Virus record (IMG/VR): IMGVR_UViG_3300014059_000004
Source: a virus
Strand: one strand, 5' to 3'
DNA: 64,000 nucleotides
A program made the translations under genes and the position numbers. Position 1 is the first letter of the stretch, and the number at the start of each line of letters is the position of its first letter. This document shows, piece after piece, positions 11,492 to 38,554 of the stretch. The notes under the pieces were generated by a model, which worked only from the letters and a program-made list of their open reading frames with translations, was not told where the DNA came from and did not search any database.

Positions 11492-11499
11492 GATGTTAC

Positions 11500-11886: not shown

Positions 11887-11887
11887 G

Positions 11888-12706: not shown

Positions 12707-13020
12707 TACTCAGTCTCCTCTTCATCGTCTTCTTCGTCCTCATTGAACGGTGTGACGATCATGTTTGCAACGAGCAGTATGGCATCCTTTGATCTTTTCA
12801 TGTCATAAACCAAATCTCTGACAATTGGCTCGTCAGAAAGCAGCTCTATGTTAGACTTTTCAGCCACTCGTTGATAGCACGTGTTCAACACGTCGAGTGA
12901 TTCTTCAACTTGATCACGAATTTGATCGAGTTGTTCTACGTACCTTAGGTTCGAACGTATGCTGTAAAACAAACCCGCAGAAAGAGCAATGATTATAAGT
13001 GAAAGTAGAACAATAATCAC
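12706..13020 (-). CDS. Small membrane-anchored protein with acidic C-terminus
   Basis: N-terminal hydrophobic helix MIIVLLSLIIIALSAGLFY and a poly-D/E tail. Confidence 0.45.
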   Translation of the reverse strand: MIIVLLSLIIIALSAGLFYSIRSNLRYVEQLDQIRDQVEESLDVLNTCYQRVAEKSNIELLSDEPIVRDLVYDMKRSKDAILLVANMIVTPFNEDEEDDEEETE

Positions 13021-14180
13021 AGCACGTCCTTTAGCACTTCATCGTACATTGTCGCAATTTTTTCGTACGAATACAAGCTTTTTAGCTTCTGCGACAATTC
13101 AGCTGCCCATCTTTGCGGAATTTCGTTTGACGTTCTGAACTTTGTTATCTTCTTCTTGAAATCATCTTCTGATGCATTAGCCCAACGTGCACCCTTCATA
13201 AAGATGTTTTCATCAATCCTGCTTGGGTGAACATTACCCAACTTGTAATCTACAGAAATGTATTTACCATGCTTCAAGAAGTCTGTGTGCCCAGACCATC
13301 CAGTTGCAATGACCGGTAGACCACTAACCGCTGCTTCAAGAATCGGAAGACCGTAACCTTCTCCTCTTGTCAATGAAACTAGCGCCTTAACTTTTGGGTT
13401 CTTATAAAGAGCGGCAACTTCATTGTCGTTCATATCTCCATGTAGAAGGTAAACTTTTGGGTTCAAACCAGCGCGGCACTCCTTCAAAACACCTGAAAGA
13501 ATTCCTCTTACCATCTTGCGATCGATCTTAGTGTTACGTCCAGCATTTGTCTTTACGATGATGCCAACGTCTTGATCATCTTTGAAGGCTTCGCACATCC
13601 ACTTGAGAGTGTAAAACGTGTTCTTCCTGTCGTTGTATGGATTGTTTCCTGTCAACTGACCAAACAGCAAAAAGTTGAAGTTGGTCTTAAGTTCAACGGT
13701 GCTGGCTTCAGTGTTTGAATCGATCGAATCAACGTATGATTCCGGAACTACTTTTATGGGAGTTGTGACGCTGTTACCGGCGCGCAAGGTAGCAGCAACG
13801 TGAGATGATGGCACAATTACCAAGTTCATAGCATTGCATTGAGCAGCCCACTTTGGATTGCAACGATCTGTTTCGACACCAGCAGTCAATCCAACGTTGA
13901 ATGTTGCAGCTGATCGATCCCACTCGTTGGGTAGTTGCAACTGGAATGATAGGTCAGCTTTGTAGCTAGCATCCACAGTTCGGATCATGATCTCTCTTAC
14001 GAGACCATCGCTGTGATTTTCATCCAAGATCCAGGGTGTATCACCCCAAGGAAGAACGTTAAACTTCAGCTCAAATCCTTCTTTCTTCTGCCTGTCTATC
14101 AACCACCTAGCAACTTGTCGACTGTGCACGCCATAACCAGAAGCAGTTAGTGCAGGACCCCTGAACAGTACTTTTTTCAT
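13017..14180 (-). CDS. Glycosyltransferase, GT-B fold (GT4-like)
   Basis: GEGYGLPILEAAVSGLPVIATGWSG matches the E-x7-E motif of GT4 enzymes. Confidence 0.7.
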   Translation of the reverse strand: MKKVLFRGPALTASGYGVHSRQVARWLIDRQKKEGFELKFNVLPWGDTPWILDENHSDGLVREIMIRTVDASYKADLSFQLQLPNEWDRSAATFNVGLTAGVETDRCNPKWAAQCNAMNLVIVPSSHVAATLRAGNSVTTPIKVVPESYVDSIDSNTEASTVELKTNFNFLLFGQLTGNNPYNDRKNTFYTLKWMCEAFKDDQDVGIIVKTNAGRNTKIDRKMVRGILSGVLKECRAGLNPKVYLLHGDMNDNEVAALYKNPKVKALVSLTRGEGYGLPILEAAVSGLPVIATGWSGHTDFLKHGKYISVDYKLGNVHPSRIDENIFMKGARWANASEDDFKKKITKFRTSNEIPQRWAAELSQKLKSLYSYEKIATMYDEVLKDVL

Positions 14181-15451
14181 AGCTCAGTAATCTCCCAACG
14201 CTTGTGCGTTTGCTTCCAAGTGTTGATGCACTTGTCCAACGTTCTATCCCACTCATTGATGAGGTTATTCATGTCGTAATCTCTGTGCGCATGGTGCATA
14301 GCCTTCATCCCAAGCTCTCTTCTCTTCTCAGGACCCATCTCATACATCTTCATGAATGCATTTGTCAACGTTTCATGAGAGACAAAATCTTCATAGATGT
14401 AAGGAACAAGCTGGTTGCCAACAAGCGACTTGACGTCTGGATCGAGAGCAATTCCATACTCCTCTCCAGTTACGTGATCAACAACTTGGCGAGTCAAACC
14501 GCCAGTCTTCAATGCAATGACGGGCTTGCCGCACATCTTTGCTTCAAGAACACCAAGTCCGAAGCCTTCATTGGTGCTACGATTCACAACAGCATCACAC
14601 ATGTTGTATAGGCCAACCATTTCAGGAAATCCAACTCTATCTTTGGAGAAGATGATGCTGTCTTTAAGACCAAGAACGTCTATGACATGATGAAGGTTCG
14701 AACCTTCTGGATCTAGCGGGTCTGCATGCATCACTAGCGTTGCCTTCCTGTGACCGTGCTTTTTCTCTAGATCTTCAAGGAATTGCTTCCAAGATACTAG
14801 GATGTCATTCGGCATCTTCCTTCGTGCGTTCCTAGACACAAAGAGCATCACGAAGTGATCGGCTCGAGACTCTCCTAGAACGCTGCGCTTGAAGCGCATT
14901 GCATCTTCTTCAGGAATTGGCTTTAACAGATCTTTTGGAACCGCATGCGGGATGTAGTTAGTCTTCTCTGGCATCCGCTCGCTGATCATCTCGTACGTCG
15001 GCCAGTTGATGCAGTTGATCAAATCTGTCGATTCGTACAACACCCCGTTAAATTCTGGCCATGGCGGGTTATCCCACAAGTGGTTGTATGTGATTGGGCA
15101 GATCTGATGAATTTCATCTTCCATCTCCCAAACCCAGATAAACTGCCTTGGATCAGTGAACAGAAGGATAGCATCAGGTTTGATCTGAACGAGAACCTTC
15201 CTCATCAAGTTCTTGTCACCGAATCCCGCCGTTGGCTTGATTATGAAGTCCTCGTTGACAACTACTTCATCGTAATTTTCATGCCGCATGGCGCCGCCAA
15301 ACACTCTGAATCGGTACTTTCCAGTACCGATCAGACCATTGATCAACCATCTAGCTTGGACTCCGACGCCAGAGGTAGCCAATGGGTGGTCACTCAGCAT
15401 CAAAATAGTATTCTTTTTAACCACTTGCATAATCCTTTGTAATGCATTCAA
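14177..15451 (-). CDS. Glycosyltransferase, GT-B fold (GT4-like)
   Basis: NEGFGLGVLEAKMCGKPVIALKTGG motif. SD AAGGA lies upstream of the ATG. Confidence 0.7.
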   Translation of the reverse strand: MNALQRIMQVVKKNTILMLSDHPLATSGVGVQARWLINGLIGTGKYRFRVFGGAMRHENYDEVVVNEDFIIKPTAGFGDKNLMRKVLVQIKPDAILLFTDPRQFIWVWEMEDEIHQICPITYNHLWDNPPWPEFNGVLYESTDLINCINWPTYEMISERMPEKTNYIPHAVPKDLLKPIPEEDAMRFKRSVLGESRADHFVMLFVSRNARRKMPNDILVSWKQFLEDLEKKHGHRKATLVMHADPLDPEGSNLHHVIDVLGLKDSIIFSKDRVGFPEMVGLYNMCDAVVNRSTNEGFGLGVLEAKMCGKPVIALKTGGLTRQVVDHVTGEEYGIALDPDVKSLVGNQLVPYIYEDFVSHETLTNAFMKMYEMGPEKRRELGMKAMHHAHRDYDMNNLINEWDRTLDKCINTWKQTHKRWEITEL

Positions 15452-15550
15452 TCAACAATTTTTCAATATCTGATGTGTGCTGGTGTTGGTTGACAAGCAT
15501 CAAGATGTCTTTTTGTCAGCCATGCTCGCCACCGTCATCTTTAGCAGAAA

Positions 15551-15572
15551 ATGTCATGATATTTCATGACAT
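15551..15572 (-). terminator. Possible weak intrinsic terminator hairpin downstream of the Cas4-like gene
   Basis: atgtcatga-tatt-tcatgacat (9-bp stem) followed on the minus strand by only 4 U. Confidence 0.2.
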
Positions 15573-15597
15573 CGTAATATCTGCGAGACTGGTGTAA

Positions 15598-16479
15598 CTA
15601 GAGCATTTTCTGTAACAGACAATGTTCAGTGTTCAAGTAAGGACAGTACGTGCAAGAACTTCTGTTCTTGATAGCAATACCCTTCTTCACTGTCGTAAGC
15701 ATGCTGCGAAGCACCTTCAACGAACGACCAGTTGTGACGTCACCGACTGAAACTTTCACAAGCTCGCAGCGACCACCATCTTTTGCCGTCCTCTTCAAGA
15801 TGATAAATCCACACTTCACGTTCTTTGGATCGACGCCAACTTTCTTCGTCCAGAAATTCTTGTAGAACGTCAGCTGCTGCGTAACGTTCGGATCTGATTT
15901 CTTCTTTGACTGCCAGCCCCAGCTGGCCGTTTTCCAATCAAGCAACCAGATGTTTTCAGTCGTCTTCTTGCCTTTCGTTGTCTTCACCTTGATGATGCAG
16001 TCAATGAATCCTTTGAAAGCATGTGGGTGTGATTCAACTGGCTCGTACAAAGCATGCTCTGCATCAATGCACTCCCAGCCTGGGAAGTTGGCTTCCATGA
16101 AAGCTGGCACTTCTGCCAAGATCTTTTTAGCTTGTTCAATGTATGAATCAAGCTCTGCTATGGGAAATGCGGGATGATCCTCATTCTTCTTCCAGGACTC
16201 TTTAAGAAAGATGACCGCAACTTCTGGGTCCATCGTCTTAGTCGTAAGAAAACGTTCGCATGCGGCGTGAACAGCTGTGCCGAAATCAAGGATGGGTGAA
16301 CGATCGTCTTTGACGATCTTCTTAACGTACTTAAGCTTGTGCCGGTAAGAACAATCTTGCCAATCTCTGAGCTCGCTGAACGAAACGTGAGCTTTCTCGG
16401 TTGGAAGCAGCTCAAACTTTGCATTTTCTTCTGGCATCATCAGATGGTATACTCTGGGCCTCAGAACGTTCAATTGCAA
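15598..16479 (-). CDS. PD-(D/E)XK nuclease of the Cas4/RecB-like family with predicted Fe-S cysteines
   Basis: GFIDCI ... LLDWKT (D...D-x-K) motifs. One N-terminal Cys and a C-terminal C-x2-C-x7-C (SSCTYCPYLNTEHC), as in Cas4-like exonucleases. Confidence 0.6.
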   Translation of the reverse strand: MQLNVLRPRVYHLMMPEENAKFELLPTEKAHVSFSELRDWQDCSYRHKLKYVKKIVKDDRSPILDFGTAVHAACERFLTTKTMDPEVAVIFLKESWKKNEDHPAFPIAELDSYIEQAKKILAEVPAFMEANFPGWECIDAEHALYEPVESHPHAFKGFIDCIIKVKTTKGKKTTENIWLLDWKTASWGWQSKKKSDPNVTQQLTFYKNFWTKKVGVDPKNVKCGFIILKRTAKDGGRCELVKVSVGDVTTGRSLKVLRSMLTTVKKGIAIKNRSSCTYCPYLNTEHCLLQKML

Positions 16480-16852
16480 GATTACGTGCTAGTTCTCTTT
16501 TTGAAGAACGTTCGGCAAAGAGGCGCTTCTGCCGACGCCAATCATCATTCTTCACTCTCACCTCTGCAGGTTGAAATACGTCATCCGGATCTGAGAGAGT
16601 TGGAGGTGTCTTGAACAGCTTGAACAGCCAATCTAGGCAAAATTCACACAATGAAAATGTGTAAGTTTCTAGGTCGTCAAGAGTTCCTTGACCATTGCCA
16701 GGTGTTGATTCATAACCACCAGAAACAGTGCAATCAATCAACCCATAGTTCGAACCAAATTTTTTGTCTTCAGTTGAACGATTTTCTTGTATGAAGAAGC
16801 AACTCTCGCCGCAAAGATTGCACAAACGCTCGGTTTTATTTTTCACGGCCAT
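16412..16852 (-). CDS. Zinc-ribbon protein with basic C-terminus
   Basis: CNLCGESC ... CEFCLDW (two CxxC pairs). Overlaps the Cas4-like gene start by 68 nt. Confidence 0.45.
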   Translation of the reverse strand: MAVKNKTERLCNLCGESCFFIQENRSTEDKKFGSNYGLIDCTVSGGYESTPGNGQGTLDDLETYTFSLCEFCLDWLFKLFKTPPTLSDPDDVFQPAEVRVKNDDWRRQKRLFAERSSKRELARNLAIERSEAQSIPSDDARRKCKV

Positions 16853-16945
16853 AGCTTCATTTTACTCACATATTCAGCCATTGGTTACCTCAACTTATTT
16901 GCTGCGTAATATTCAAGGGCTTCGAGTGATCACTATTCTGCCGTT

Positions 16946-17410
16946 CTAGCGACCGGTTGTCTCCCTGATATAGGCGGCAAACGTCCGGTTGCACAGCGCA
17001 CCGAAGCGCTTCGACTGGATGTGATTGATGATCTTATCACCGGGCCAATTTGTCAACTTTTGCAAGACCATTGCACTGATGATTCCGGAGCGATTTAGAC
17101 CAGCCATGCATGTCACGACAACGTTCTGCTTCTTTCCCAGCCTCACCACAACTTCGTCAGCGGCTGCTTGCCAGACGGGCAAAAACTTCGCGAATCTCCA
17201 TTCGCGTTCGTCATCATCACCCGGAGCGCAGATCACATCAACGCCTGTGTATGCATCCTTGTTTTGGTTCTCTGTAGCAGCCAAGACAAGAGCATGGTAA
17301 CCCTCAGTAGCTAGAGAATCTCCTGGTGGGGGCGCAGCACCTTGCCACAGCGTGCCGTAGATGTGATCTACGTCTAGAACGTTAAACACGTCTTCAAATT
17401 CAGTTTTCAT
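16946..17410 (-). CDS. Dual-specificity/tyrosine protein phosphatase-like (CX5R)
   Basis: VVVTCMAGLNRSGIISA matches the (H)CxAGxxRSG P-loop signature. Confidence 0.6.
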   Translation of the reverse strand: MKTEFEDVFNVLDVDHIYGTLWQGAAPPPGDSLATEGYHALVLAATENQNKDAYTGVDVICAPGDDDEREWRFAKFLPVWQAAADEVVVRLGKKQNVVVTCMAGLNRSGIISAMVLQKLTNWPGDKIINHIQSKRFGALCNRTFAAYIRETTGR

Positions 17411-17801
17411 CGATGATCTTTACTAGGCCAACGTTACCCATGCGAATTTCGCGTGGATGCATGTTACGATCGATTGTTATCTTAAAAGAATGGATTTTTC
17501 CGTAGTACTTGTCAGTCTGCGGTATGATCTTCTTGCTTGATTCATTGATTGGCAGCTTAAAGAGAACGCATGATTCAAACATCATAGCTGTGTCGATACC
17601 GCACGTAATCTGTGCAGTTGAATGTTCTGGCGCTCCGGCCGCGATCGCAGCATTACGTACATCAAACAGAACCTCTGCTAGCGTTTCATACCATTCACGC
17701 ACTGTGCCGTCAAACGCTGGTGATATGCTAAAATCAAATTTCTTTCCAGTTCTAGTATTTACGAACTTTCCTGGGCGACGATTCCAATATCGAGTGATCA
17801 T
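17400..17801 (-). CDS. Hypothetical protein (133 aa)
   Basis: ORF between the phosphatase and dehydrogenase genes. No motif recognised. Confidence 0.4.
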   Translation of the reverse strand: MITRYWNRRPGKFVNTRTGKKFDFSISPAFDGTVREWYETLAEVLFDVRNAAIAAGAPEHSTAQITCGIDTAMMFESCVLFKLPINESSKKIIPQTDKYYGKIHSFKITIDRNMHPREIRMGNVGLVKIIDEN

Positions 17802-18771
17802 GATTTATTTCTTTCTTGCTAACGGCGCGGCCTTGCATGTGTTCCCAATCGCGGTCTTCTTTAGGACGCAATTCAAGGTTTTTGTTCCAAGCAGCTTGCA
17901 TCACTTTTGGATCAACACCCAAATCTTGTGCAATAGAGATCAATGCATTGATGTCTTTCGGGAAGCAATGCCCGCCGAATCCGCGAACGTATCGACCATC
18001 ATGCGTTGGAACTGGGCCCGGGACAGCCCAGTGTGAATTACCTAGTCGTGTATCGAGCTTAGCGTATTCAACGACCTTATCATAGTCGATATTTAGTCCC
18101 TTGTCATCCAAAGCTTCGCAGACCTGCGCTACTTCGTTGGCAAAAGCAACTTTAGTAGCTAGGAAGCAGTTGATGACGTACTTCACCATTTCGGCCGTAG
18201 TTGACGAAGTTTTTACGAGCGGCACCTTTGGAAATGCAGACTGGAACACTAGTTTCACTGTGTTGATGTGAGGTCTCGGACCACCCAAGATGATGCGATT
18301 CTGATTTCGCATATCATCAAGAGCGTTTGCCTCTGTCAAGAATTCAGGGTTAAAGATGACTCGAAGACCAGATCCAACAAACTGAGCATTCCAACGCTCG
18401 GTCGTTCCGGGCGGAACTGTTGATTTGACCACAGCAATCCGACGACCCGGTGTTTCTGCTAGTTCACGTAGCACACCTTCGACTATAGACAAATCAGCTG
18501 ATCCATCTTCATACATCGGCGTTGGCAAGCAAACGAAGTATACGCCAGAGAAGTTCTTCTCTATTTCACATGCACGTGCAAATTCACTTGATGACTTGGG
18601 AAGAAATTGAGGCGTTCGCATTCCATCCGCGTTCGGGATGTATGCATTTTTCCCGCCAGTCGCAACCTTACCAGTCTTGTCGTAAACGTATACATCAAAT
18701 CCACGTTCAGCAAAGACTGTCGTAAGTGAACCGCCCACGAAACCTTGCCCAATACATGCCACTGACTTCAT
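17752..18771 (-). CDS. Nucleotide-sugar dehydrogenase, UDP-glucose 6-dehydrogenase family
   Basis: N-terminal NAD fold CIGQGFVGG. Catalytic-Cys motif GFGGHCFPKD. 339 aa is short for UGDH. Confidence 0.7.
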   Translation of the reverse strand: MKSVACIGQGFVGGSLTTVFAERGFDVYVYDKTGKVATGGKNAYIPNADGMRTPQFLPKSSSEFARACEIEKNFSGVYFVCLPTPMYEDGSADLSIVEGVLRELAETPGRRIAVVKSTVPPGTTERWNAQFVGSGLRVIFNPEFLTEANALDDMRNQNRIILGGPRPHINTVKLVFQSAFPKVPLVKTSSTTAEMVKYVINCFLATKVAFANEVAQVCEALDDKGLNIDYDKVVEYAKLDTRLGNSHWAVPGPVPTHDGRYVRGFGGHCFPKDINALISIAQDLGVDPKVMQAAWNKNLELRPKEDRDWEHMQGRAVSKKEINHDHSILESSPRKVRKY

Positions 18772-19508
18772 TTTTGTTCCTCCACAAATGTTCTGTAACC
18801 TTGTATTTCAAGCATTGTTTGATCGATCCATCTGTGAGACATGTTATTATTCGAACAATACAGCATCAATGCTTCTTGTTTCACTTGAGCGTTCTTGTCT
18901 AGACCTTTTACTTCTTCGAGAAGTTTTTCACCTGAAGTCAAAGTTATCAAAAAGTCTGGTACATAATTCCTTTGACGATCTGTAACGTAAGGAATTTTAA
19001 TACCATGCTTCTTTGTCCATGTAAGAACAGTGGAATCGTTGTCTAGTTGAATCATTCTAAATTTTTCAAGCAATGAATCACAATGCACTCGTTCACCAGT
19101 TTTTGATGAACTGTACCAGGATTTTGTCCCATATCCATTTGTGTTTGAAATTTTGCCCTCAGCAATTCCTTTTGCGCGAGACGTTGACATCTTTTTTCGT
19201 GTTTCAAGCGAATGTCTATGACCGTAAAATGGATTACGGTCACCAGATTGATTACGGTTCAATGTGGCATCACCAATTTTACGTCGCGTCTCTTCATCAT
19301 GTTTTCGACCAAAAAAAGAATTTCCCGAGCCTGTACGAGACTCTGACATCAATTTTCGAGTTTCAAGTGAGTGTTTGTCATATTTTGCACGTCTAGCTTT
19401 TGATCTACAAGACATACATGACGTTTGTTTCTTTGAAGCGATTTCAAAAGTAACTTTGAGCGTATACTCAATATCACGTTCACAAACAGGACATCGTCTT
19501 ACGTACAT
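18768..19508 (-). mobile_element. Homing-endonuclease-like gene: Zn finger + NUMOD3 repeats + C-terminal PD-(D/E)XK domain
   Basis: CPVCE..CMSCRSK. Three H(S/D)xETR+K(M/I)S repeats (NUMOD3). YVPDFLITLTSGEKLLEEVKG (PD...E-V-K). Confidence 0.5.
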
Positions 19509-19598
19509 GATCTAAGTATGTAATCCCTGCCCAATGACGGCAACAGAACGTTTTTTCATTGCTTTACATTATAATACAGACAGCCTGTTGTTTAGTTG

Positions 19599-22007: not shown

Positions 22008-22009
22008 AG

Positions 22010-30582: not shown

Positions 30583-30585
30583 CGC

Positions 30586-31521: not shown

Positions 31522-31904
31522 GAACGATGCTTGATCTCCTTCACGAGCGGCGCTGCAAAGTCTGTCCCATTCAGCATCACAGCCATCAATGCTAGTTCTT
31601 TTGTCTCAATCTCTGAGAGACGAGCCGGGGGATCGAAGATCGTCGGATCTAGCGTGTGTTGGTTGTTTATGAGAACCGACTCGTAGTACTGCTGTGCAAG
31701 CCAGTTCATCGATTCGTTTGTGATCTTGACGTTTGATTCTCTCATGACATCAACAAACGTCTCAAAGATGATCTGATAGATCTCAATGCACGTTGTGCGA
31801 TTCAACGACTTTCCATCAGAAGCGAACGTCTTTAGCTTAGACTCCAGCAATGTTGCGACAGTCTCATGAAGCCTTGGCTTTTTCATCTTTCTCTCTCCTA
31901 GCAA
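31518..31904 (-). CDS. Hypothetical protein (128 aa)
   Basis: ORF in operon context. Confidence 0.4.
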   Translation of the reverse strand: MLGERKMKKPRLHETVATLLESKLKTFASDGKSLNRTTCIEIYQIIFETFVDVMRESNVKITNESMNWLAQQYYESVLINNQHTLDPTIFDPPARLSEIETKELALMAVMLNGTDFAAPLVKEIKHRS

Positions 31905-32256
31905 GTTCGTTCTTTAGATCCACACCTATCTGCGTATCATTGAACAGCTTGCTGAAAAGTACTACATCTTTCTTTGGGAGAGATGAAATATCGTAATCAT
32001 TCATCACGATGACCTCACCAATCTTCTCACCATTGATGATGATTGACTTGAATAGCTGGTTGATCAACCAATCTGTTGCCAAACCCGAGACTGTTGTTGT
32101 CTTCATCTTTGAGAAGACGTCTTTGACCTCTGTGCTTATGACGTTGTGAACCAACGCTAGCGATTCTTTGTTAAAGTTAAATTCACCAGCTGCCGCAGCT
32201 GATGTCAATTGCTTCAGAATTTTCTCTTGTAGCAGGGCATGGAACCTAACTTGCAC
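31864..32256 (-). CDS. Hypothetical protein (130 aa)
   Basis: ORF in operon context. Confidence 0.4.
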   Translation of the reverse strand: MQVRFHALLQEKILKQLTSAAAAGEFNFNKESLALVHNVISTEVKDVFSKMKTTTVSGLATDWLINQLFKSIIINGEKIGEVIVMNDYDISSLPKKDVVLFSKLFNDTQIGVDLKNELARREKDEKAKAS

Positions 32257-33173
32257 AGCTTCTCCATGAAATCAGCGCATTGCTTGATGCATGCATTCCA
32301 ATCAGTGAATGATGTGGAGTTGGGCGTGAACTTTCCAGAAAGTAGCAGCGCCTTCAGCTCATCCCAGTCTTTGAAAGAATGATCTGCGCCAGCGAATTCG
32401 ACGCAGCCGCCGCCGTCGACATGAACGTAAGTAGGCAACTCACAAGCGATGCTTTCCGCGACGTGATTGGGGCCCGGATCGAATCGGGAAGCAGAGATGT
32501 AAACATCGTACTTGCCCAGCTCTTCACCGAGCTCAGCACCCCATAGAGGCTTCACAACGTTGGTGTTCTTGAACTTGCCTCGCGAGCGGCCGATGTAGTT
32601 GAAAGTGAACTTAGAACCTTCAGGAGTTCCAACCCACTCATCGAGAAGATTGTACACGTCAAATCCTTTCTTCTCGTTGTCGGACCAGTGATGGGTGACA
32701 AGGTTGATCTTCCCGTTGTTGAGCTTGTTGGGATTCGGCTTGTAGATGCTCTTGTCTACGCCGTTTATTGCAACAATTGAGGGGTTAGATCCCCAACCCA
32801 ATTTCTGAAAATATTCTTGGAGCCATCGTGAGACAAAGATTGTACCGTCCACGTGCTTCGAGATCTCTAGAAGGCGCTTGTCGACGCCTCGGGTACCCTT
32901 ACGTGCATCATTTTCGTTAACGCGAAGGACGATCTTTGGAGAACGCCCCTGAGCTTCCATCATCATCTTGTACATGATGGCTTGATCGGCGCTGATGCCA
33001 GTACCATCATTCTCAGTAGCAACGAGCAAGATAACATCTGGGGCTGTGTTACCATCGTTGGCCGGGATATATTGGTGCCCGAGCTTTGGCAATTCCGAAG
33101 CAATAGCGTTGAAGAAGTTGTTACCGCCGCCCCAAGCAGCAGAAAGTGGCATACGATTCATGTAAACGCGCAT
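32214..33173 (-). CDS. Putative GT-B-fold glycosyltransferase
   Basis: NHVAESIACELPTYVHVDGGG (E-x5-E-x-P). Confidence 0.45.
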   Translation of the reverse strand: MRVYMNRMPLSAAWGGGNNFFNAIASELPKLGHQYIPANDGNTAPDVILLVATENDGTGISADQAIMYKMMMEAQGRSPKIVLRVNENDARKGTRGVDKRLLEISKHVDGTIFVSRWLQEYFQKLGWGSNPSIVAINGVDKSIYKPNPNKLNNGKINLVTHHWSDNEKKGFDVYNLLDEWVGTPEGSKFTFNYIGRSRGKFKNTNVVKPLWGAELGEELGKYDVYISASRFDPGPNHVAESIACELPTYVHVDGGGCVEFAGADHSFKDWDELKALLLSGKFTPNSTSFTDWNACIKQCADFMEKLCKLGSMPCYKRKF

Positions 33174-33214
33174 GGTTAAATGCTAATCCATGCGGTTACA
33201 AATGAATCACCAGA

Positions 33215-33454
33215 TCAATGCTTAGCGATTGTTACGTTCGATGATTCATCATCGACCCAAATCAACTTCGTCATGCCACCGTGGCCGTGGATGTTCTCAA
33301 GCGTCTGGATGTCTGGATAGTAGCACATAGATGATTTCTCAGTCAACCAAACCAATGCGCACCACCCAGTATCGAACTGGCATCCTTCAGCTACGTTACC
33401 GAGACCAGAAACACCAGATGCATCTTGCAATCTCTTCAAGTAGAACCGTTTCAT
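33215..33454 (-). CDS. Small hypothetical protein (79 aa)
   Basis: Fills the intergenic gap. Confidence 0.3.
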   Translation of the reverse strand: MKRFYLKRLQDASGVSGLGNVAEGCQFDTGWCALVWLTEKSSMCYYPDIQTLENIHGHGGMTKLIWVDDESSNVTIAKH

Positions 33455-34140
33455 TTGATGAAACCTCTTTTCCTCAAGAATTGTTTGTCTGTAACACGCT
33501 TAAACTTCAATCTATGTTCTGCGAACCATGCATCCTGTTTACGATCGATCAACCATTTCTTATGGATCTGTGCATCACGAAGTGTCCTATGTTCTGCAAT
33601 GATTTCTATCGGACGATCCAACCCGTGCCAGTAAACGCCATCAAATTGAATGTAGGTGTCGATGCTCTTAATGTAGAAGTCAATTGGCCAACAATCATTC
33701 ATCAAAACTTGCCGTTCAACATTATCAATGCCATATACAAAACAGAGATGTTCAAAGTATGTATCCTCAATTTTGCTTTTGCCGTATGTACCTCTAATTT
33801 TCATTGTTTCATGGCCACGCTTGTTTCGCAAGTCCCAATCAGTTTTATTCCGAATTTCATTGACTTGCCAATGGTGTTTAACGCCATAACGAATCATGGT
33901 TGTTCGTTCTCGTTTAGCTTGTACTTCTACTGATTTACCAGGGTTGTCAACCCCATAACGTTCGATGCATGTCTGACGTGTTTGTTCACGTATCAATCCA
34001 CCTTTTTGACGAGCAATTGTTGTACACTTACGACTACAGAACACACGTCCGTCCCGTCGATCGATTTCTTTTGCTTCACAAGGACGTTTGAGAAGCTTCT
34101 TGTGACATGTCAAGCATTCATATGAAATCTTTGTTCCCAT
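33451..34140 (-). mobile_element. Homing-endonuclease-like gene: N-terminal Zn finger + Vsr/DUF559-type PD-(D/E)XK nuclease
   Basis: CLTCHKK..CSRKC is similar to the N-terminus of the 18768..19508 gene. C-terminal PIDFYIKSIDTYIQFDGVYWHG. Confidence 0.45.
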
Positions 34141-34922
34141 GGTTCCCCTGTTGAAATATACCCACGTGAACGAAGGAAGTCAGCTTCCGCTTTCTGAAAG
34201 CGCGCGTCGTCTGTTTGATAGACTTTGCCTCCTTGCTCGTCAATAGAATAATGATAAAAAACACGGGGAATGAAAGCTCGACGACGTGTGCGGTATAGAC
34301 ATGGCAAATATACAGCCTGATCTCCTGCACGCTTCACAAGTTCTCCATTCATATTTGTGAAATTCTCGTAAGGAACTCCATTTATCAATGACTTTCGAAA
34401 AGTCTTGAGGTGCGATGACACCCATGGATGAACGTAAGGATCAGCATCAGGTGGGAGCGGCCCCGAGATGTTCTTGTCGCTGTATGCCCAACGATGAGCA
34501 GTCCACAAGGCTTCTGCGCCTGTTTGTTCGTACACGGCGTTCAAGTACACCAATGCATCATTGTCAGTCAACCAGTCATCAGCATCAATGCGACAGACGA
34601 TGTCATCATCATCACACATTGAAATGCCATGCAGGACATTAGCGACTTCCCACTTCTTTTCAGCATTCCAGACAACATGAATCTTATCATGAGGAATCAA
34701 ACGTGACCATGCGTCGATTATGTCTGCTTCTTTGCGTCGTTCATCATTGTCACTAACGTCATCGATCAAGATGATCTTCCAGTTGTCGTACGACTGGCTT
34801 ACGATGCTAGCGAGCATCTGCCCCACGTACTGTGATGCATTGTACATGGGTGCAACAAAACAAAATCGATTCTTACCACTCGTTGTCATCAACGTCTTTC
34901 TTCGTAAGAAGAACTTGACCAT
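34110..34922 (-). CDS. Family-2 glycosyltransferase (GT-A)
   Basis: FCFVAPMYNASQYVGQMLASIVSQSYDNWKIILIDDVSDN. Confidence 0.6.
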   Translation of the reverse strand: MVKFFLRRKTLMTTSGKNRFCFVAPMYNASQYVGQMLASIVSQSYDNWKIILIDDVSDNDERRKEADIIDAWSRLIPHDKIHVVWNAEKKWEVANVLHGISMCDDDDIVCRIDADDWLTDNDALVYLNAVYEQTGAEALWTAHRWAYSDKNISGPLPPDADPYVHPWVSSHLKTFRKSLINGVPYENFTNMNGELVKRAGDQAVYLPCLYRTRRRAFIPRVFYHYSIDEQGGKVYQTDDARFQKAEADFLRSRGYISTGEPWEQRFHMNA

Positions 34923-35878
34923 GACTTATTAGTAATTACACGACGAATTGTCGAATATGACAATGTTGGATATAGTGTCATTAGTTCGTTCATTGTTGAA
35001 CCTTTTTCAAATCGAATTCTTATTTCATGAACAATAGCCCATGTCAATTTTGAACGTGGGTTACCTTCATTTGACATTCGTTTTTTACGAGCAGCAATAA
35101 CCTCTGGTTTATGCATTCCCTTAATTATATTTGATCGTTTATTCGAATCTTGCCAGGCCGACGTCTGTCTTTCGGATTGATATCTGATATTTTCATCACT
35201 TTGCGTACGTTCTAGAACTTTTTTCCTGTATTCTTCATTTTCTGCCCAATATTGTTTGCATGCATTACTTTTTTTCATGCGAACAGTTTCTTTAAGTTGT
35301 GCTTCTGAATTATTCTTACGTGCTTCTGGTGTTCTTGACCATTCTTTTTGAATTTCAGAATGTCGTATACGAACTGTATTATCTGACCAAATTTCTTTAA
35401 GTTTTTCACTTTGTTTTTGACGACGTTGTTGATCAGACCACAAAACTTGTTGTGTAACGCTCATCTTAAGACGTGTTTCATCAGAAGTAGATGTACCTCC
35501 AATTCCTCCTCCGCTAATGTTCAACATTTGAACGCCTTGAGATCGTAGTTCTTCTATCAGATAAATTTCTCTTTGAAAAGCTATAGATTCGTTCTGATGT
35601 TGTTGATCGATCTTGAACTCGAACGAATCTATTCCGTATTTTCTCATTGAGTTATACAAGCGTGGAAGACTTTGAGAACCAGAATTTGCTGCGTATACGT
35701 GTTGCTTCCAGCGCTTATTAAGATTATTAGTTTTTCCAACGTAACAGTCACCGTTTACGGTACATGTAATGGTATATGTGTAACTAAATTGCTCACCATT
35801 CTGATTGATCAATACCTTTTTTTGTGAGCAAAACTTGTCCATAGTTGATTTCTTCATCTGCATAATGCCTATCATCAA
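34889..35878 (-). mobile_element. GIY-YIG homing endonuclease with NUMOD repeats
   Basis: YTYTITCTVNGDCYVGKTNNLNKRWKQH ... EIYLIEELRSQGVQMLNISGGG. Repeated basic NUMOD-like segments. Confidence 0.65.
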
Positions 35879-36599
35879 TAAATAGGCGTCTATCTAGAAT
35901 ACACAACTCTTTCTCTTCAGAGTTGACTTCGCTCTCATTGACTGAATCAATCAGCTCACGGCATTGAATTCCAGGGTCAGTCTTGCTAGGAAGATGGTAA
36001 TCATCAAACAGCAAGCACTTCAACCACTTGTCCTTTGTCATCTCCCAATCGAGTTTTGTCGCAGCGTACGAATGATCGCCATCGATGTATACCAAATCGA
36101 ACTTTTGATCTCCAAGCTGCGGCACCATCTTTTCAGACGGTCCACGAGCGAATTCGATCATGTCAAACCATTCTGGTGGGAAGACTTGCTGCAGCATCTT
36201 CAAGTAATTTTCATCTAGCTTTGGATCAACAGTGATGATCTTGCCAGACACGCCCATATCATAGAAAGCTCTAGCGGCGCAGAACGTTGAGTATCCACGA
36301 CCAAAACCAATCTCAAGCATCGACGTCATCTTGTAGCGCTTGATGAGGTTGTATATGAGAATACCACGTTCATAATTTGCACGGTAGAACATGCCGTACT
36401 TCTTGTAGTTTGGATCATCAGGCGTCCTTGTGCGTTCTGCTGTGAACCTACCAATGTAATCAAAATCACCCATGACAACTTCGTCAGGTGATGTTCCAAG
36501 CTGCTCTAGTTTCTGCTTGATGCTGATAGTCTTCATTTCTTCATCACCTTTGGTTCTGGTCTGTTCACTGTCATGTGCGGCGTAGAAAATCCTGTCCAC
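35793..36599 (-). CDS. Class I SAM-dependent methyltransferase (TylF/MycF-like O-methyltransferase family)
   Basis: MLEIGFGRGYSTFCAARAF ... YIDGDHSYAA. Confidence 0.55.
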   Translation of the reverse strand: MDRIFYAAHDSEQTRTKGDEEMKTISIKQKLEQLGTSPDEVVMGDFDYIGRFTAERTRTPDDPNYKKYGMFYRANYERGILIYNLIKRYKMTSMLEIGFGRGYSTFCAARAFYDMGVSGKIITVDPKLDENYLKMLQQVFPPEWFDMIEFARGPSEKMVPQLGDQKFDLVYIDGDHSYAATKLDWEMTKDKWLKCLLFDDYHLPSKTDPGIQCRELIDSVNESEVNSEEKELCILDRRLFIDDRHYADEEINYGQVLLTKKGIDQSEW

Positions 36600-38554
36600 T
36601 TCTTATGCCAGATGTGGCCGCCAGTCTTCTCTGCCAACTCTTTAGCTCTATCTTTGATCATGTCATCTGTGACTTCTGACCATGGAACGTCGAACATCAT
36701 GTTGTTCTCTGCTGTGTCATCAGCATTCCGACCATGCAACGAATTCCAATGACGAGTCCAGTAGTTTTTGTACAGCTTGATCTTTCGTTCTAGATCATAC
36801 CAACTGTAATGATGAACGCCTGGAAGTTGATCAACTGCTGCATTGAACCATTGCTCATACTTGATCAAGGCTTCAGCATTTCCCATCAAAGCTTGCAAAC
36901 GAACGTTCTCAACTTCGTGTGTATAGAACGACATATGAGGCAAACGTTCACCAGTTTCAGCATGTATCATGTCGCAACCATCCGTGCCTTCATGAGCGTA
37001 CATGTTACCATCTGCATCAGTTGCGCGAAGTTCTACTGGAATTCCGTGCGTAATGTATGGCTTGTTGCGGCTGAGACGCCATTTCCACGGTTGAATGTCG
37101 ACTCGGATCTTGTTAGGTCCGCCCCAATACTCGATGACTGGAAGTGACAATATGTCGACTTGCTTCGGAAGCTTCTGTGCCAGGCTGATGATCTTCTTTG
37201 CATCATCTTCATGGACTATCTCATCTGAGTCCATCTGCCAGCAGAAATCACCAGTGCACATAGCTCGAGCTTCTGCTTTCTGCATGCCGTCATAGACAGC
37301 GTGACGGGGGTGTGACCAATCACGGGGAATCACTTTGATGTGAATCTTGCTGTCAAATGGTCCCAAACCTCCGCTTATAACGCGAGTAGTACCATGTGTT
37401 ATAAGCGATTGAAGACAATTGTTGAAGTAATCGCCTGTCGTTGGAACGTCCTTTAGATGTTCTGAATGGGCAAAAGAAAGCTTCAACAATGACTCTAGCG
37501 TACCATCTGTGCTACCACCGTCAACAACACAAACTTCATCGCAGAATTCCAACATGCTCTCGATGCATTGCACGAATGGATAATCCTGCTGCATGCAGTT
37601 GTACGTCGTTGTGTAACCTGAGATGCGTGGTTTGTAGTTTGCGATCTTCTTGACAGTAGTCCAGAATAGTTCTGGTGATACATGAAGGTAATCTTCGATG
37701 TCTTCTATCACGTCAGTAGCAAACCACTCTTCATCCTTGTGCTGGACGTTCTCGTTAAGTTCAAGCTTGCAGCCAAGAAGCTTCGCTTCAATGACCATTC
37801 TTGGACAAGTGTCAGCACCGGCTGGCAGATACACAAAGCCTTCAGCAGTTGACAACTTCAGAAGAAGCTCATTGTACGGAAGGTTCCATACGACTTCGTA
37901 CGCCTTAGCATTGTCTTTGCACCACTTTTCAGCAGCTTCGAAACCTTTTACCCAAGAGTTCGAACCAAGAACGATCCAACCTTTTCGACTGGATGGGTCA
38001 GTGGTTTCTCTTAGCTTTTTGATGTACCCTAGAGAAACTTTGTCGAAGACGCTGGATAGGGTGTAGTTGTCTTTCTCTGCCAAGAACGGGAAGATGGTGT
38101 GATACTTCTCTTTCTGAGCATCTGACATCCAAAAGAGACACTGCGAACCGTAGTAGAAAGCTGAAACTAGCTTCCCGTTCATCTGCTCAGCACAATCACA
38201 TGCTGTGCCTGTTGCAGCTGCATGCTTCTCTGGGGATCTGAACTTGCAGAACTTATAGTCGTACTCTAGATTGCAGTAACGTAGGTTGCCTATGATGCTG
38301 GGGATCAACTGTGGATTTAGTTCAGCATAGTTTCCAAAGATCCAGAACTTTTCAGATCCTTCTCTCAAGAGGTCCATAGTCACCTCTTTTGACTTGATCT
38401 TCTGAACCTTCAGTGGACTGGATGATATCAGTGCTTCAGAAGTTAGCTCAGCTCCACCGACGTAGTCTTCTACGAAGAGATCAGCTACAAAGATGACGTC
38501 AGCAGTCTTATCGATGCTGACTCTCTTCAACGTAAAGAAATGTTCTCCAAACAA
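36533..38554 (-). CDS. Large multidomain glycosyltransferase with a central GT2 (GT-A) domain
   Basis: TTTYNCMQQDYPFVQCIESMLEFCDEVCVVDGGSTDGT ... WQMDSDE. TTG start at 38554 preceded by SD AAGGGAG at a 9-nt spacing. Confidence 0.55.
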   Translation of the reverse strand: MFGEHFFTLKRVSIDKTADVIFVADLFVEDYVGGAELTSEALISSSPLKVQKIKSKEVTMDLLREGSEKFWIFGNYAELNPQLIPSIIGNLRYCNLEYDYKFCKFRSPEKHAAATGTACDCAEQMNGKLVSAFYYGSQCLFWMSDAQKEKYHTIFPFLAEKDNYTLSSVFDKVSLGYIKKLRETTDPSSRKGWIVLGSNSWVKGFEAAEKWCKDNAKAYEVVWNLPYNELLLKLSTAEGFVYLPAGADTCPRMVIEAKLLGCKLELNENVQHKDEEWFATDVIEDIEDYLHVSPELFWTTVKKIANYKPRISGYTTTYNCMQQDYPFVQCIESMLEFCDEVCVVDGGSTDGTLESLLKLSFAHSEHLKDVPTTGDYFNNCLQSLITHGTTRVISGGLGPFDSKIHIKVIPRDWSHPRHAVYDGMQKAEARAMCTGDFCWQMDSDEIVHEDDAKKIISLAQKLPKQVDILSLPVIEYWGGPNKIRVDIQPWKWRLSRNKPYITHGIPVELRATDADGNMYAHEGTDGCDMIHAETGERLPHMSFYTHEVENVRLQALMGNAEALIKYEQWFNAAVDQLPGVHHYSWYDLERKIKLYKNYWTRHWNSLHGRNADDTAENNMMFDVPWSEVTDDMIKDRAKELAEKTGGHIWHKKWTGFSTPHMTVNRPEPKVMKK

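Follow-up and report, generated by a model that had tools for sequence, protein, structure and literature searches.

The window analyzed here, 64,000 nucleotides of the viral record IMGVR_UViG_3300014059_000004, carries between positions 13017 and 38554 a tightly packed run of 31 open reading frames (ORFs) of at least 79 amino acids, all on the minus strand. Only four intergenic gaps in this island exceed 40 bp (15451-15598, 16852-16946, 19508-19599, and 33173-33215). Its limits are genuine gene ends, with the stop of a GT4 gene at 13017 and the start of a 673-residue glycosyltransferase gene (GT673) at 38554; beyond lie a divergent switch and plus-strand genes from 38833. Domain assignments were made with Pfam and NCBIfam profiles on the window proteins, with some additional calls from PHROG, hhalign, or solved-structure matches, and place 16 ORFs in glycan synthesis with profile support and two tentatively, leaving six that are non-glycan and seven unknown (Table 1). 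Five glycosyltransferases score above the Pfam gathering threshold (GT673, the GT2, the GT4 of the near-core block, and the right-anchor GT4 pair), two are GT4-like and below it, and two further GT-A candidates, u268 and u234, are tentative.

An earlier note on this DNA described a phage-borne glycan-biosynthesis island of more than 20 co-oriented genes, with some ten glycosyltransferases and embedded non-glycan genes. That description holds, the glycosyltransferase count being roughly right, and most of its sugar-nucleotide enzyme calls are supported by domain profiles. Both motifs that it quoted are present: the DegT protein has SFQAIKHLTTVDGGAI and the UGDH-like protein has GFGGHCFPKD. It overlooked the main point, namely that the locus is anchored across a whole lineage, exchanges cassettes at the strain level, and carries no export machinery.

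Table 1. Features of the glycan locus and its downstream neighbors, in order of position
Feature	Position	Strand	Evidence
Co-oriented downstream block: u104 (N-terminal TM), u272, u128b, u506, u535, gp25 baseplate wedge (7978-8451), u655, u512, 1211-aa Laminin_G_3 protein	914..13020	-	GPW_gp25 29 bits, Laminin_G_3 43.2 bits
Right-anchor GT4 pair (14177-15451 and 13017-14180)	13017..15451	-	PF00534 56.6 and 37 bits
PD-(D/E)XK (Cas4/AddB-like) nuclease, right anchor, non-glycan	15598..16479	-	PF12705 70.1 bits
Small passengers: u133 (17400-17801), DSPc phosphatase with CX5R motif (16946-17410), Cys-rich u146 (16412-16852)	16412..17801	-	DSPc 34.6 bits
Short UGDH-family dehydrogenase, part of right anchor in most relatives	17752..18771	-	TIGR03026 203.7 bits
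NUMOD3 + TnsA-like-N homing endonuclease, right cassette boundary, GC 0.374, variably present	18768..19508	-	PF07460 73.1 bits, PF08722 28.9 bits
Exchangeable 9.2-kb cassette with amino-sugar pathway	19522..28734	-	Breakpoints versus L082 (28734) and L204 (~19522)
LbH O-acetyltransferase-like	19599-20384	-	Pfam/NCBIfam profiles
u322	20338-21306	-	
u234, GT-A-like (tentative)	21303-22007	-	PHROG match, hhalign E 2e-4
u352	22010-23068	-	
142-aa "GDPD-like" protein	23065-23493	-	IAHRG..EID..HD motif alone
HAD (beta-phosphoglucomutase family) + nucleotidyltransferase fusion	23490-24875	-	Pfam/NCBIfam profiles
GNAT acetyltransferase	24868-25404	-	Pfam/NCBIfam profiles
DegT aminotransferase	25290-26501	-	249.5 bits
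RmlB-like SDR 4,6-dehydratase	26498-27466	-	TIGR01181 299 bits, below cut-off 365; STDEVFG dehydratase-type motif
Cupin, FdtA family	27466-27900	-	23.4 bits versus cut-off 23 (barely above)
u268, GT-A-like (tentative)	27897-28703	-	PF00535 on 61-68% identical homologues
Near-core block: GT4-like (32214-33173), unknowns (31864-32256, 31518-31904), GT4 (30586-31521), GDP-mannose 4,6-dehydratase (GMD; 29605-30582), GT4-like (28700-29608)	28700..33173	-	Pfam/NCBIfam
79-aa Acb5-family protein (anti-CBASS cGAMP nuclease family), non-glycan passenger	33215..33454	-	Precomputed PF26761 on near-identical genes of L082, L090, L202
DUF7487 protein, probably mobile endonuclease-like, GC 0.40, variably present	33451..34140	-	PF24308 35.9 bits
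GT2 glycosyltransferase, near-core set	34110..34922	-	PF00535 62.1 bits
GIY-YIG homing endonuclease, GC 0.356, variably present	34889..35878	-	PF01541 46.5 bits
SAM-dependent (O-)methyltransferase	35793..36599	-	Methyltransf_24 56.8 bits, Methyltransf_3 31.5 bits
GT673, left anchor, two-domain glycosyltransferase, 673 aa	36533..38554	-	PF00535 36.2 bits

The carrier is an uncultured aquatic jumbo phage of about 300 kb that resembles the moraphages described in 2025. Phage-type genes in the window encode gp25, a ClpP-type prohead protease, a helicase, PIN-PhoH, and an Hc1 histone-like protein. No DNA match to deposited phages was found for the window, and its helicase is ~31% identical to those of jumbo phages such as Tunturi_5, Xoo-sp13, and XacN1; the proposed likeness to cyanomyophage LPS clusters therefore does not extend to the backbone. 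Moraphages are aquatic jumbo phages of up to 307 kb (Perez-Hernandez et al. 2025, PMC12619734), with a core that includes four glycosyltransferase orthogroups, gp25, PhoH, a UvsW-type helicase, and a prohead protease, with Hc1 in their four complete genomes, and with variable genomic islands and numerous homing endonucleases. Every one of these traits recurs in the window, a likeness drawn from described gene content and not from sequence. Sugar-nucleotide genes and locus organization are not described in that paper.

Comparison with ~170 related contigs, including 80 GT673-side loci (L002-L081) and 80 right-anchor-side loci (L122-L201) from IMG/VR, identifies the island as a lineage-wide glycan locus with fixed anchors and a variable middle, carried by a large, moraphage-like lineage of uncultured jumbo phages from aquatic settings. 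The spacing between anchors, measured in 20 contigs, ranges from 965 bp to 24.8 kb and is 21.1 kb in this window; the stretch holds genes for sugar-nucleotide enzymes and for glycosyl-, methyl-, and acetyltransferases. GT673, the left anchor, is present in all 80 loci on its side and has more than 2642 homologues, on contigs of up to 351 kb, with no match in deposited phages. It consists of an N-terminal Rossmann-type domain (residues ~20-300) with an invariant Cys cluster and a C-terminal GT-A/GT2 domain (~310-650); the best Protein Data Bank folds for its AF2 model (pLDDT 87) are the SunS/ThuS peptide S-glycosyltransferases, K4CP, and TarS/TarP. Even in 13 loci with little similarity to the window, glycan genes again crowd the 10 kb that follow GT673, the 147 ORFs there including GT2 (23), GMD-type SDR (10), RmlD (9), GT11 (7), FkbM methyltransferase (7), GT10 (4), GT6 (4), and DegT (3) genes.

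The right anchor comprises the short UGDH, the PD-(D/E)XK nuclease, and the two GT4 enzymes, after which come the baseplate genes. On this side, every one of the 80 loci has the GT4 pair, with u104, u272, u128b, u506, and gp25 invariably after it, and the gene order of the downstream block is kept in 61-80 of them. The nuclease gene is directly upstream of the pair in 73 loci and the UGDH gene upstream of the nuclease in 48; the DSPc phosphatase occurs in 12, and u133 and u146 in two to three. As regards the UGDH-family dehydrogenase called earlier, the family is correct but the enzyme is truncated. Its match, above the TIGR03026 cut-off of 189.8, covers only profile positions 2-294 of 413, comprising the NAD-binding and central domains, and the whole C-terminal nucleotide-sugar-binding domain is absent. 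This short form, which may be inactive, is kept across the lineage, in relatives of 284-331 residues that all end ..RDWE..GRAVS.

Beside GT673, the methyltransferase, rightly recognized before, occurs in 27 of the 80 loci and the near-core GT2 in 56, whereas the genes of the near-core block are each present in 31-41. The Acb5-family gene, whose family is described in bioRxiv 10.1101/2025.07.12.664507, is the best conserved of the locus (75-80% amino acid identity across loci). GMD is genuine (TIGR01472, 423 bits; cut-off 415), which upholds the dehydratase of a previously proposed GDP-6-deoxyhexose branch, but no reductase or epimerase partner for it was found in the window.

The middle of the locus is exchanged between near-identical phage strains, much as bacterial O-antigen genes are. 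The cassette is swapped as a unit between closely related phages: its GC content is low (0.376 over 20338-28703 versus 0.44-0.47 in the flanks), and it is 99-100% identical between strains whose flanks share only 71-96%. Contig L082 is 97-99% identical to the window from 47541 to 28734 (97.8% in the near-core block) and then carries a different cassette, of PseB/FnlA-like type, with a u268 paralogue (38% amino acid identity), an RmlD-like gene, and a PseB/FnlA-like dehydratase. Conversely, L204 is 99.3% identical over 28784-19522, and the UGDH beyond drops to 71%. A third contig, L202, matches the window at 99.9% over 31521-17897; further left, on the GT673 side, identity is only 91.5-96.4%, and the switch falls at an I-HmuI-like endonuclease gene.

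Several of these breakpoints and indels coincide with homing-endonuclease genes that are present or absent by strain. The NUMOD3 endonuclease is missing in L204, where the LbH gene abuts that for UGDH; the GIY-YIG region (34921-35807) is missing from the 97-99% identical L082 and L083, and also from L202; and L082 has ~200 bp in place of 33481-34378, the DUF7487 region. From this coincidence with three or four boundaries we propose that homing endonucleases may assist exchange, which, presumably during co-infection, would diversify the glycan.

Within the cassette, the HAD-nucleotidyltransferase fusion, GNAT, DegT, and LbH acetyltransferase calls are all borne out by profiles. The enzyme called RmlB is better termed an RmlB-like SDR, having the dehydratase-type motif but a score under the family cut-off. 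The cupin isomerase call is likewise partly sustained: the protein has an NDP-ketosugar cupin fold, with QdtA as top match and RmlC and heptose epimerases at nearly equal score, but its FdtA-family match barely exceeds the threshold. Its family has an invariant KG.ILH.KR, in which one of the two catalytic histidines of FdtA is presumably retained. The supposed GDPD-like enzyme has no Pfam match even at E < 5, and its sole match is phrog_34507, of unknown function.

A dTDP-3-acetamido-3,6-dideoxyhexose, the product previously predicted, is not established by this gene set. In addition to the ambiguity of the cupin, the nearest solved relatives of the DegT protein are 4zwv/4xau, CalS13, and ArnB (240-140 bits), which we take to be C4 aminotransferases, with QdtB at 130 bits; the LbH protein looks like an O-acetyltransferase rather than like QdtC/FdtC; and the bacterial DegT and GNAT pair recurs without a cupin. 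Judged by these sequence relationships, 4-amino chemistry appears at least as likely as a 3-acetamido product. In the proposed pathway, the HAD-nucleotidyltransferase would activate a hexose phosphate, which the RmlB-like enzyme would dehydrate to an NDP-4-keto-6-deoxyhexose. This might be isomerized or epimerized by the cupin before DegT transaminates and GNAT N-acetylates it, to give an NDP-acetamido-dideoxyhexose aminated at C4 or C3. GMD would provide a GDP-6-deoxyhexose precursor, and the glycosyltransferases would assemble a strain-specific, methylated, O-acetylated heteroglycan in the cytoplasm.

The whole glycan machinery is predicted to be soluble: no transmembrane (TM) segment is predicted in any of the 31 island proteins, and none of 379 ORFs in 35 related islands has two or more. 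Because membrane export genes are absent, the target of the glycan probably lies within the infected cell, the virus particle being the most plausible candidate. Our leading reading, held tentatively, is that the non-exported acceptor is a virion protein, most likely of the tail, baseplate, or capsid. Two features of the locus hint at a protein as acceptor. In every relative it directly adjoins the baseplate block and runs in the same orientation, and the best solved folds for the GT-A domain of GT673 are peptide-glycosylating enzymes, although the lead of SunS/ThuS over polysaccharide glycosyltransferases is small (E 2e-8 versus 5e-7). Mycobacteriophage virion proteins and giant-virus fibrils, both discussed below, provide precedents for such glycosylation. 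Counting against a virion acceptor, the GT4 pair is separated from the baseplate genes by those for a small TM-anchored protein and a regulator-like protein. Peripheral glycosyltransferases acting on undecaprenyl-linked intermediates likewise have no TM helices, and the phage could borrow host priming, flipping, and ligation enzymes. GMD without a partner reductase in the window and the possibly inactive short UGDH also weigh against this explanation.

The phage enzymes might instead use host lipid carriers during infection to make or alter a surface polysaccharide such as LPS O-antigen or capsule, the host priming transferase, flippase, and ligase performing the membrane steps, and so block superinfection or the adsorption of progeny to infected cells and debris. 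Polysaccharide clusters of jumbo phages and cyanophages have been interpreted in this way in the literature (PMC7824862). GT4, GT2, WcaF-like LbH, GMD, and DegT are all families of bacterial O-antigen/CPS loci, which the conserved flanks and low-GC variable center also mimic. We nevertheless consider it less likely than a virion acceptor, as no polytopic membrane protein is predicted in 36 islands even though whole sugar pathways are encoded, the locus always adjoins virion genes, and no lysogeny genes were seen in the window. Since bacterial polysaccharide clusters as a rule include their own cognate Wzx/Wzy or ABC transporters, highly diverse phage glycans would require very permissive host exporters.

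Soluble enzymes would also suit DNA hypermodification, in which unusual NDP-sugars from the island are placed on hydroxymethylated phage bases as a defense against restriction. Known phage glycosyltransferases add diverse glycans to DNA, according to the citing account (Pyle et al. 2024, cited in PMC12619734), and a PD-(D/E)XK nuclease is a fixed anchor gene. What makes this improbable is that ~9 glycosyltransferases with methyl- and acetyltransferases imply a large heteroglycan, hard to fit with DNA packaging, and that the profiled window proteins, many of which have no family match, yielded no base hydroxymethylase or other enzyme that modifies bases. Furthermore, GT10 and GT11 fucosyltransferase families are common in sister islands, and we know of none that acts on DNA. 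Misassembly of bacterial DNA into a phage contig, or very recent acquisition from a host chromosome, would fit the low GC of the cassette and a homologue labeled "Caulobacteraceae bacterium" in a MAG, but is for practical purposes refuted. At least five independent samples and assemblies contain this cassette with identical junctions, and the anchors occur in more than 160 IMG/VR phage contigs of up to 369 kb, contrary to the prophage-flank artefact considered earlier. Among bacteria, the closest DegT relatives reach only 37-53% identity, whereas cassette genes have 40-58% identical relatives in sister phage islands such as L174.

Bacterial O-antigen and capsule clusters share with the island conserved flanks, a low-GC variable center, modular NDP-sugar genes paired with matching glycosyltransferases, and replacement of alleles among close strains; the island differs in being virus-carried and in lacking an initiating phosphoglycosyl transferase, Wzx/Wzy, Wzz, an ABC transporter, and a ligase. 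Glycosylated mycobacteriophages have, to our knowledge, only a few glycosyltransferases and no sugar-nucleotide pathways. Their capsid and tail-tube proteins are glycosylated (Freeman et al. 2023, cited in PMC12619734) and, as far as that account goes, phage glycosyltransferase genes lie beside structural genes, as here, with glycans on capsid and tail proteins. Large polysaccharide ("LPS") clusters are reported mainly in cyanophages, and those of jumbo phages and cyanomyophages, such as the 15 genes of P-SSM2, are polymorphic between related phages (Iyer et al. 2021, PMC7824862). They too contain paralogous SDR epimerase/dehydratases, cupin sugar isomerases, nucleotidyltransferases, and several glycosyltransferase families, but the island has no sequence relationship to those phages, is larger (31 genes), has fixed anchors lineage-wide beside baseplate genes, and exhibits demonstrated cassette exchange.

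Virus-encoded pathways for rare bacterial-type amino and deoxy sugars, soluble, cytoplasmic, and clustered with glycosyltransferases, are also found in the Megavirinae fibril and chlorovirus capsid glycan clusters, and GT673 has fold matches to multi-domain giant-virus glycosyltransferases. PBCV-1 encodes GMD and UGDH too. Giant-virus fibril glycosylation clusters comprise 6-33 genes, with content that varies by clade (PMC10117803). Giant viruses differ in having eukaryotic hosts and demonstrated virion glycans, whereas the present locus belongs to a tailed phage and its glycan is predicted from the genes. Here, moreover, variation extends even to strains that are 97-99% identical, with defined anchors and breakpoints.

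The island at 13017-38554 holds 31 ORFs (79 aa or longer), every one on the minus strand and most abutting or overlapping their neighbours. The minus-strand run extends left to position 386 via baseplate-type genes, and its right end is marked by a 279-bp divergent gap (38554/38833). We infer operon structure from spacing alone; scans for sigma-70 promoters and intrinsic terminators returned counts equal to the shuffled expectation, and a search for tRNAs found none. The phage glycan island that an earlier note had described here is confirmed, and the reading given to it there is supported in part. Both of the motifs quoted there are found in the window's proteins and most of the enzyme calls are borne out by profile searches. 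The family membership of the DegT aminotransferase is certain (249.5 bits). For the RmlB-like SDR the best model by far is TIGR01181 (dTDP-glucose 4,6-dehydratase) at 299 bits, under the equivalog cut-off of 365, and the protein carries a YxxxK motif and an STDEVFG motif, the latter of the dehydratase type. The GDP-mannose 4,6-dehydratase (GMD) is bona fide, scoring 423.3 bits against TIGR01472 (cut-off 415), while the best model for the GNAT is PseH at 60.8 bits (cut-off 93.1) and the cupin barely reaches the FdtA gathering score (PF05523, 23.4 bits against 23). An LbH acetyltransferase, a UGDH-family dehydrogenase and a SAM methyltransferase are also supported by profiles, as is a HAD domain of the β-phosphoglucomutase family fused to a sugar-phosphate nucleotidyltransferase. 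Five glycosyltransferases exceed Pfam thresholds, two more are GT4-like below threshold, and two (u268 and u234, ORFs named by their length in amino acids) are tentatively GT-A. The "GDPD-like" enzyme of the earlier note drew no profile support, permissive Pfam included. Permissive Pfam searches of ten unknown proteins gave no match, a search of PDB sequences with profiles for u268, u234 and u322 was equally empty, and hhalign comparisons of u268 with a GT2 profile and of u322 with a GT4 profile were negative. Six genes of the island are not glycan genes: those for a PD-(D/E)XK nuclease, a DSPc phosphatase, a 79-aa Acb5-family protein and three endonuclease-type mobile genes (NUMOD3/TnsA-like, DUF7487 and GIY-YIG).

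Features of the glycan island and its surroundings, with positions in the window
Feature	Coordinates	Strand	Remarks
Conserved gene	11888-12706	minus	Straight after the GT4 pair; with the next gene, kept in 68-80 of 80 relatives and parting glycan from baseplate genes
Conserved gene	12706-13020	minus	As above
DSPc-fold phosphatase	16946-17410	minus	CX5R intact (VTCMAGLNRSG); GC 0.516, the island maximum; kept in 12/80 relatives
u133	17400-17801	minus	Not conserved; no family match
UGDH-like protein	17752-18771	minus	339 aa; NAD-binding and central domains only, C-terminal domain missing
NUMOD3/TnsA-like endonuclease	18768-19508	minus	Low GC
u322	20338-21306	minus
u234	21303-22007	minus	Tentative GT-A
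HAD-nucleotidyltransferase fusion	23490-24875	minus
GNAT	24868-25404	minus
DegT aminotransferase	25290-26501	minus
RmlB-like SDR	26498-27466	minus
Cupin	27466-27900	minus
u268	27897-28703	minus	Tentative GT-A
Perfect 13-bp inverted repeat	28223-28251	plus	AAACCGGTTCAGA/TCTGAACCGGTTT; within u268 on the non-coding strand, near the left cassette boundary; terminator-like match
GMD	29605-30582	minus
79-aa Acb5-family gene	33215-33454	minus
DUF7487 endonuclease-type gene	33451-34140	minus	Low GC
GIY-YIG endonuclease-type gene	34889-35878	minus	Low GC
GT673	36533-38554	minus	673 aa, two domains
Hc1 histone H1-like protein	45051-45332	plus	93 aa; PF07432, 37.9 bits; flanked by the helicase gene and a 196-aa gene
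PhoH-like ATPase	46186-47616	plus	N-terminal PIN domain (PF13638, 96 bits); kept in 57/80 related loci
GIY-YIG endonuclease-type gene	57038-57895	plus	Low GC

The island is one instance of a locus with fixed ends. Homologues of GT673, the two-domain glycosyltransferase at one end, number more than 2,642 (E ≤ 1e-5) and occur on contigs of up to 351 kb; 162 relatives are in IMG/VR. In all 80 loci fetched, the divergent neighbour of GT673 is one and the same set of genes (R1, R2, R4, protease, helicase and PhoH), and GT673 is followed by co-oriented glycan genes. The other end was compared in 80 loci found with the 424-aa GT4 as the query: upstream of the GT4 pair lie the short UGDH (48/80) and the PD-(D/E)XK nuclease (73/80), and after it the order u104, u272, u128b, u506, gp25, u655, u512 recurs. 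The 104-aa protein of this series has a hydrophobic helix at its N terminus and a tail that is acidic, and the 272-aa protein looks sigma-factor-like by eye and has no Pfam match. The three anchor glycosyltransferases are conserved across the lineage, and among the 20 contigs with both anchors the gap from GT673 to the GT4 pair is 965 bp at the shortest and 24.8 kb at the longest, measuring 21.1 kb in the window; in the two related contigs L078 and L080 the nuclease gene alone fills it. Glycan functions dominate again in 13 loci whose islands have few homologues of the window's: the 147 ORFs scanned there, from the 10 kb after GT673, include 23 GT2, seven GT11, four GT10 and four GT6 enzymes, together with 10 GMD-type SDRs, nine RmlD-like proteins, seven FkbM methyltransferases and three DegT proteins. 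The N-terminal domain of GT673 has no Pfam match; within residues 103-121, C103...C119-D-C121 and H111 are invariant across 26 homologues, and this Cys/His cluster may be a metal site.

Between these anchors, part of the island is exchanged between phages that are otherwise nearly identical. GC content is 0.376 over 20338-28703 and 0.356-0.406 in the three endonuclease genes of the island, compared with 0.44-0.47 in the remainder. Between 47541 and 28734 the window and one related contig, L082, share 97-99% identity; L082 lacks two genes there, GIY-YIG (34921-35807) and DUF7487 (33481-34378), and at 28734, the edge of the low-GC block, all similarity stops. Past that point L082 carries a u268 paralogue (38% protein identity), an RmlD-like reductase and a PseB/FnlA-like UDP-GlcNAc dehydratase, which amount to a different sugar pathway. 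The contig covers this alternative cassette for 2.7 kb only, to its end, and an exact 27-mer from it had no match in IMG/VR. A second contig, L202 (JGI contig Ga0212216_10000460), is 99.9% identical to the window over 31521-17897, and further left three segments match it at 96.4%, 94.9% and 91.5%; the step to 99.9% coincides with an extra I-HmuI-like endonuclease gene (L202 6491-7186). A third, L204, is 99.3% identical over 28784-19522, lacks the NUMOD3 endonuclease and has as its next gene a UGDH allele that is 71% identical. The breakpoints of these three contigs define an exchangeable unit of 9.2 kb (~19522-28734, u268 through LbH). At least three flanking backgrounds carry this cassette, and the window's background is also seen with another cassette. 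Look-ups of UGDH, DegT, LbH and DSP gave matches only on contigs with the window's cassette.

Each of the three in-island endonuclease genes is missing in at least one strain of 96-99% identity, and shifts in identity between strains coincide with the sites of variably present homing-endonuclease genes, a coincidence that suggests recombination triggered by the endonucleases, with the flanking DNA co-converted. The cassette pool seems to circulate inside the phage lineage. Recent capture of the cassette from a host was considered and rejected: a search for bacterial donors in 185,579 species genomes found no syntenic cassette, the best bacterial DegT relatives, at 37-53% identity, lack the cassette gene order, and the cassette genes recur at 40-58% identity in sister phage islands (e.g. 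L174). With Wzx/Wzy- or ABC-dependent O-antigen and CPS clusters the locus shares conserved flanks and a compositionally deviant variable centre that is replaced between close strains.

The cassette holds the predicted genes needed for activation, dehydration, transamination and N-acetylation, by which a hexose phosphate would be activated and converted to an NDP-4-keto-6-deoxyhexose, which would then be transaminated and N-acetylated. The earlier note had predicted a dTDP-3-acetamido-3,6-dideoxyhexose, the product of the Qdt/Fdt pathway. The solved relatives nearest to the DegT protein are 4zwv/4xau (240 bits), CalS13 (202) and ArnB (142-150), all of which we take to be C4 aminotransferases, with QdtB lower at 130, although regiochemistry is not readable from such scores. 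The LbH protein is nearest to galactoside, maltose and polysialic acid O-acetyltransferases, and QdtC, FdtC and PglD types are absent among its nearest solved relatives, so that any N-acetylation would fall to the GNAT. The predicted fold of the cupin (AF2, pLDDT 72) resembles NDP-ketosugar cupins, QdtA ranking first (E 4.5e-6) with RmlC, GDP-heptose epimerases and FdtA/FdtD within tenfold of it; searches of PDB sequences with the single sequence or a five-sequence profile gave no relevant match. Its family is small (four homologues found), and the invariant KG.ILH.KR presumably has one His where FdtA has H49/H51, keeping only the second catalytic His. The DegT+GNAT pair also recurs in bacteria without a cupin. 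Taken together, the presumed loss of one His, the DegT relatives, the cupin-less bacterial pair and the O-acetyltransferase-like LbH make the 3-acetamido sugar no more likely than a 4-acetamido-4,6-dideoxyhexose. The C-terminal, nucleotidyltransferase half of the HAD fusion scores 54.6 bits against rmlA_long (cut-off 320), and its nearest PDB entry is the generic NDP-sugar pyrophosphorylase 4evw.

Outside the cassette, no partner for the GMD (an Rmd/Fcl 4-reductase, a 3,5-epimerase/4-reductase or an adjacent dedicated aminotransferase) was found in the window, the sole other SDR being the RmlB-like cassette enzyme; RmlD/Fcl-like SDRs and GT10/GT11 fucosyltransferases are often present in sister islands. 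The UGDH-like protein is a conserved short form with its catalytic Cys motif present and of uncertain activity. In all relatives checked (L028, L069, L079, L052 and L043; 284-331 aa) the protein ends alike, at ..RDWE..GRAVS; a frameshifted gene with its C-terminal domain in u133 was rejected for this reason and because u133 is not conserved and matches no family.

Among 50,697 deposited phages, neither the island nor the plus-strand block had a nucleotide match by megablast, and tblastn of GT673 against the same set (INPHARED) gave none either, which left no cultured relative for comparison. The cyanomyophages to which the earlier note likened the island are an analogy only. The window encodes gp25, a ClpP-type prohead protease, a helicase with ~31% identity to its counterparts in phages of 300-640 kb, a PIN-PhoH protein and an Hc1 histone-like protein, and a protein 100% identical to u268 lies on a 313,755-bp contig. 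Moraphages are aquatic jumbo phages (the largest 307 kb, the hosts predicted to be Bacteroidota) for which gp25, PhoH, a UvsW-type helicase, a prohead protease, core glycosyltransferases (four orthogroups) and Hc1 (PF07432, in four complete genomes) are reported; sugar-nucleotide genes go unmentioned, and "variable genomic islands" are left for future work (PMC12619734). The window matches this gene set, a likeness of gene content.

A Kyte-Doolittle scan (19-residue window, threshold 1.6) predicted no TM segment in the 31 island proteins, and none of the 379 ORFs of 35 related islands has two or more, so that phosphoglycosyl transferase, flippase, polymerase and ABC permease are consistently missing. 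Bacterial O-antigen/CPS clusters carry those export genes, whereas the phage islands are without them despite having up to ~25 genes. Remodelling of the host surface, the published view of cyanophage clusters (PMC7824862), would thus have to borrow host exporters, and these would need to be unusually permissive given how diverse the phage glycans evidently are; we regard it as possible but less likely than glycosylation of the virion. The missing export genes argue instead for an intracellular acceptor. That this acceptor is DNA seems very improbable. The locus is contiguous and co-oriented with the baseplate block in all relatives (80 loci), and the closest folds to the GT-A domain of GT673 are the peptide-glycosylating SunS/ThuS enzymes; virion glycosylation has precedents in mycobacteriophages, as cited in PMC12619734, and in giant viruses (PMC10117803). 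Together these are weak pointers to a protein acceptor in the cytoplasm, for instance a component of the virion, and glycosylation of the virion is, in our estimate, quite possible, if somewhat short of probable.

A more tentative proposal, which we consider possible but doubtful, is that tailed phages of this abundant aquatic lineage own a "serotype locus", in which a cytoplasmic pathway would build a complex and strain-specific virion glycan coat diversified by endonuclease-promoted cassette swaps among co-infecting phages. Such a coat would be built self-contained in the cytoplasm, as those of giant viruses are, and cassette exchange would, if true, be the viral counterpart of bacterial O-antigen switching. 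Phage glycan clusters (PMC7824862) and glycosyltransferases as moraphage core genes (PMC12619734) were already known. Apparently new are the architecture with its fixed anchors, the extent to which its middle varies in size, the mapped 9.2-kb cassette that is replaced between strains, the link between breakpoints and homing endonucleases and the lineage-wide absence of export genes. Glycan clusters encoded by viruses have been described in giant viruses and, in less detail, in cyanophages, and their targets and diversification in phages are largely untested; the present locus offers a clean system, with fixed anchors, a defined cassette and natural near-isogenic variants with different sugar pathways. 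The GT673 family is very abundant in aquatic metagenomes, with thousands of homologues, and the phenomenon is therefore widespread in ecological terms. Were the virion to carry the glycan, autonomous viral glycosylation would extend from giant viruses to tailed phages, and selection on phage surface glycans would be suggested, with host receptors, defence lectins, grazers and rival phages among its possible sources. Enzymes for rare NDP-sugars can also be drawn from the cassettes.

The 79-aa Acb5-family gene is the best conserved of the locus, at 75-80% amino acid identity against ~50% for its neighbours. Near-identical copies in L082, L090 and L202 carry a precomputed Pfam assignment to PF26761, and the Acb5 family comprises anti-CBASS cGAMP-cleaving enzymes (bioRxiv 10.1101/2025.07.12.664507).
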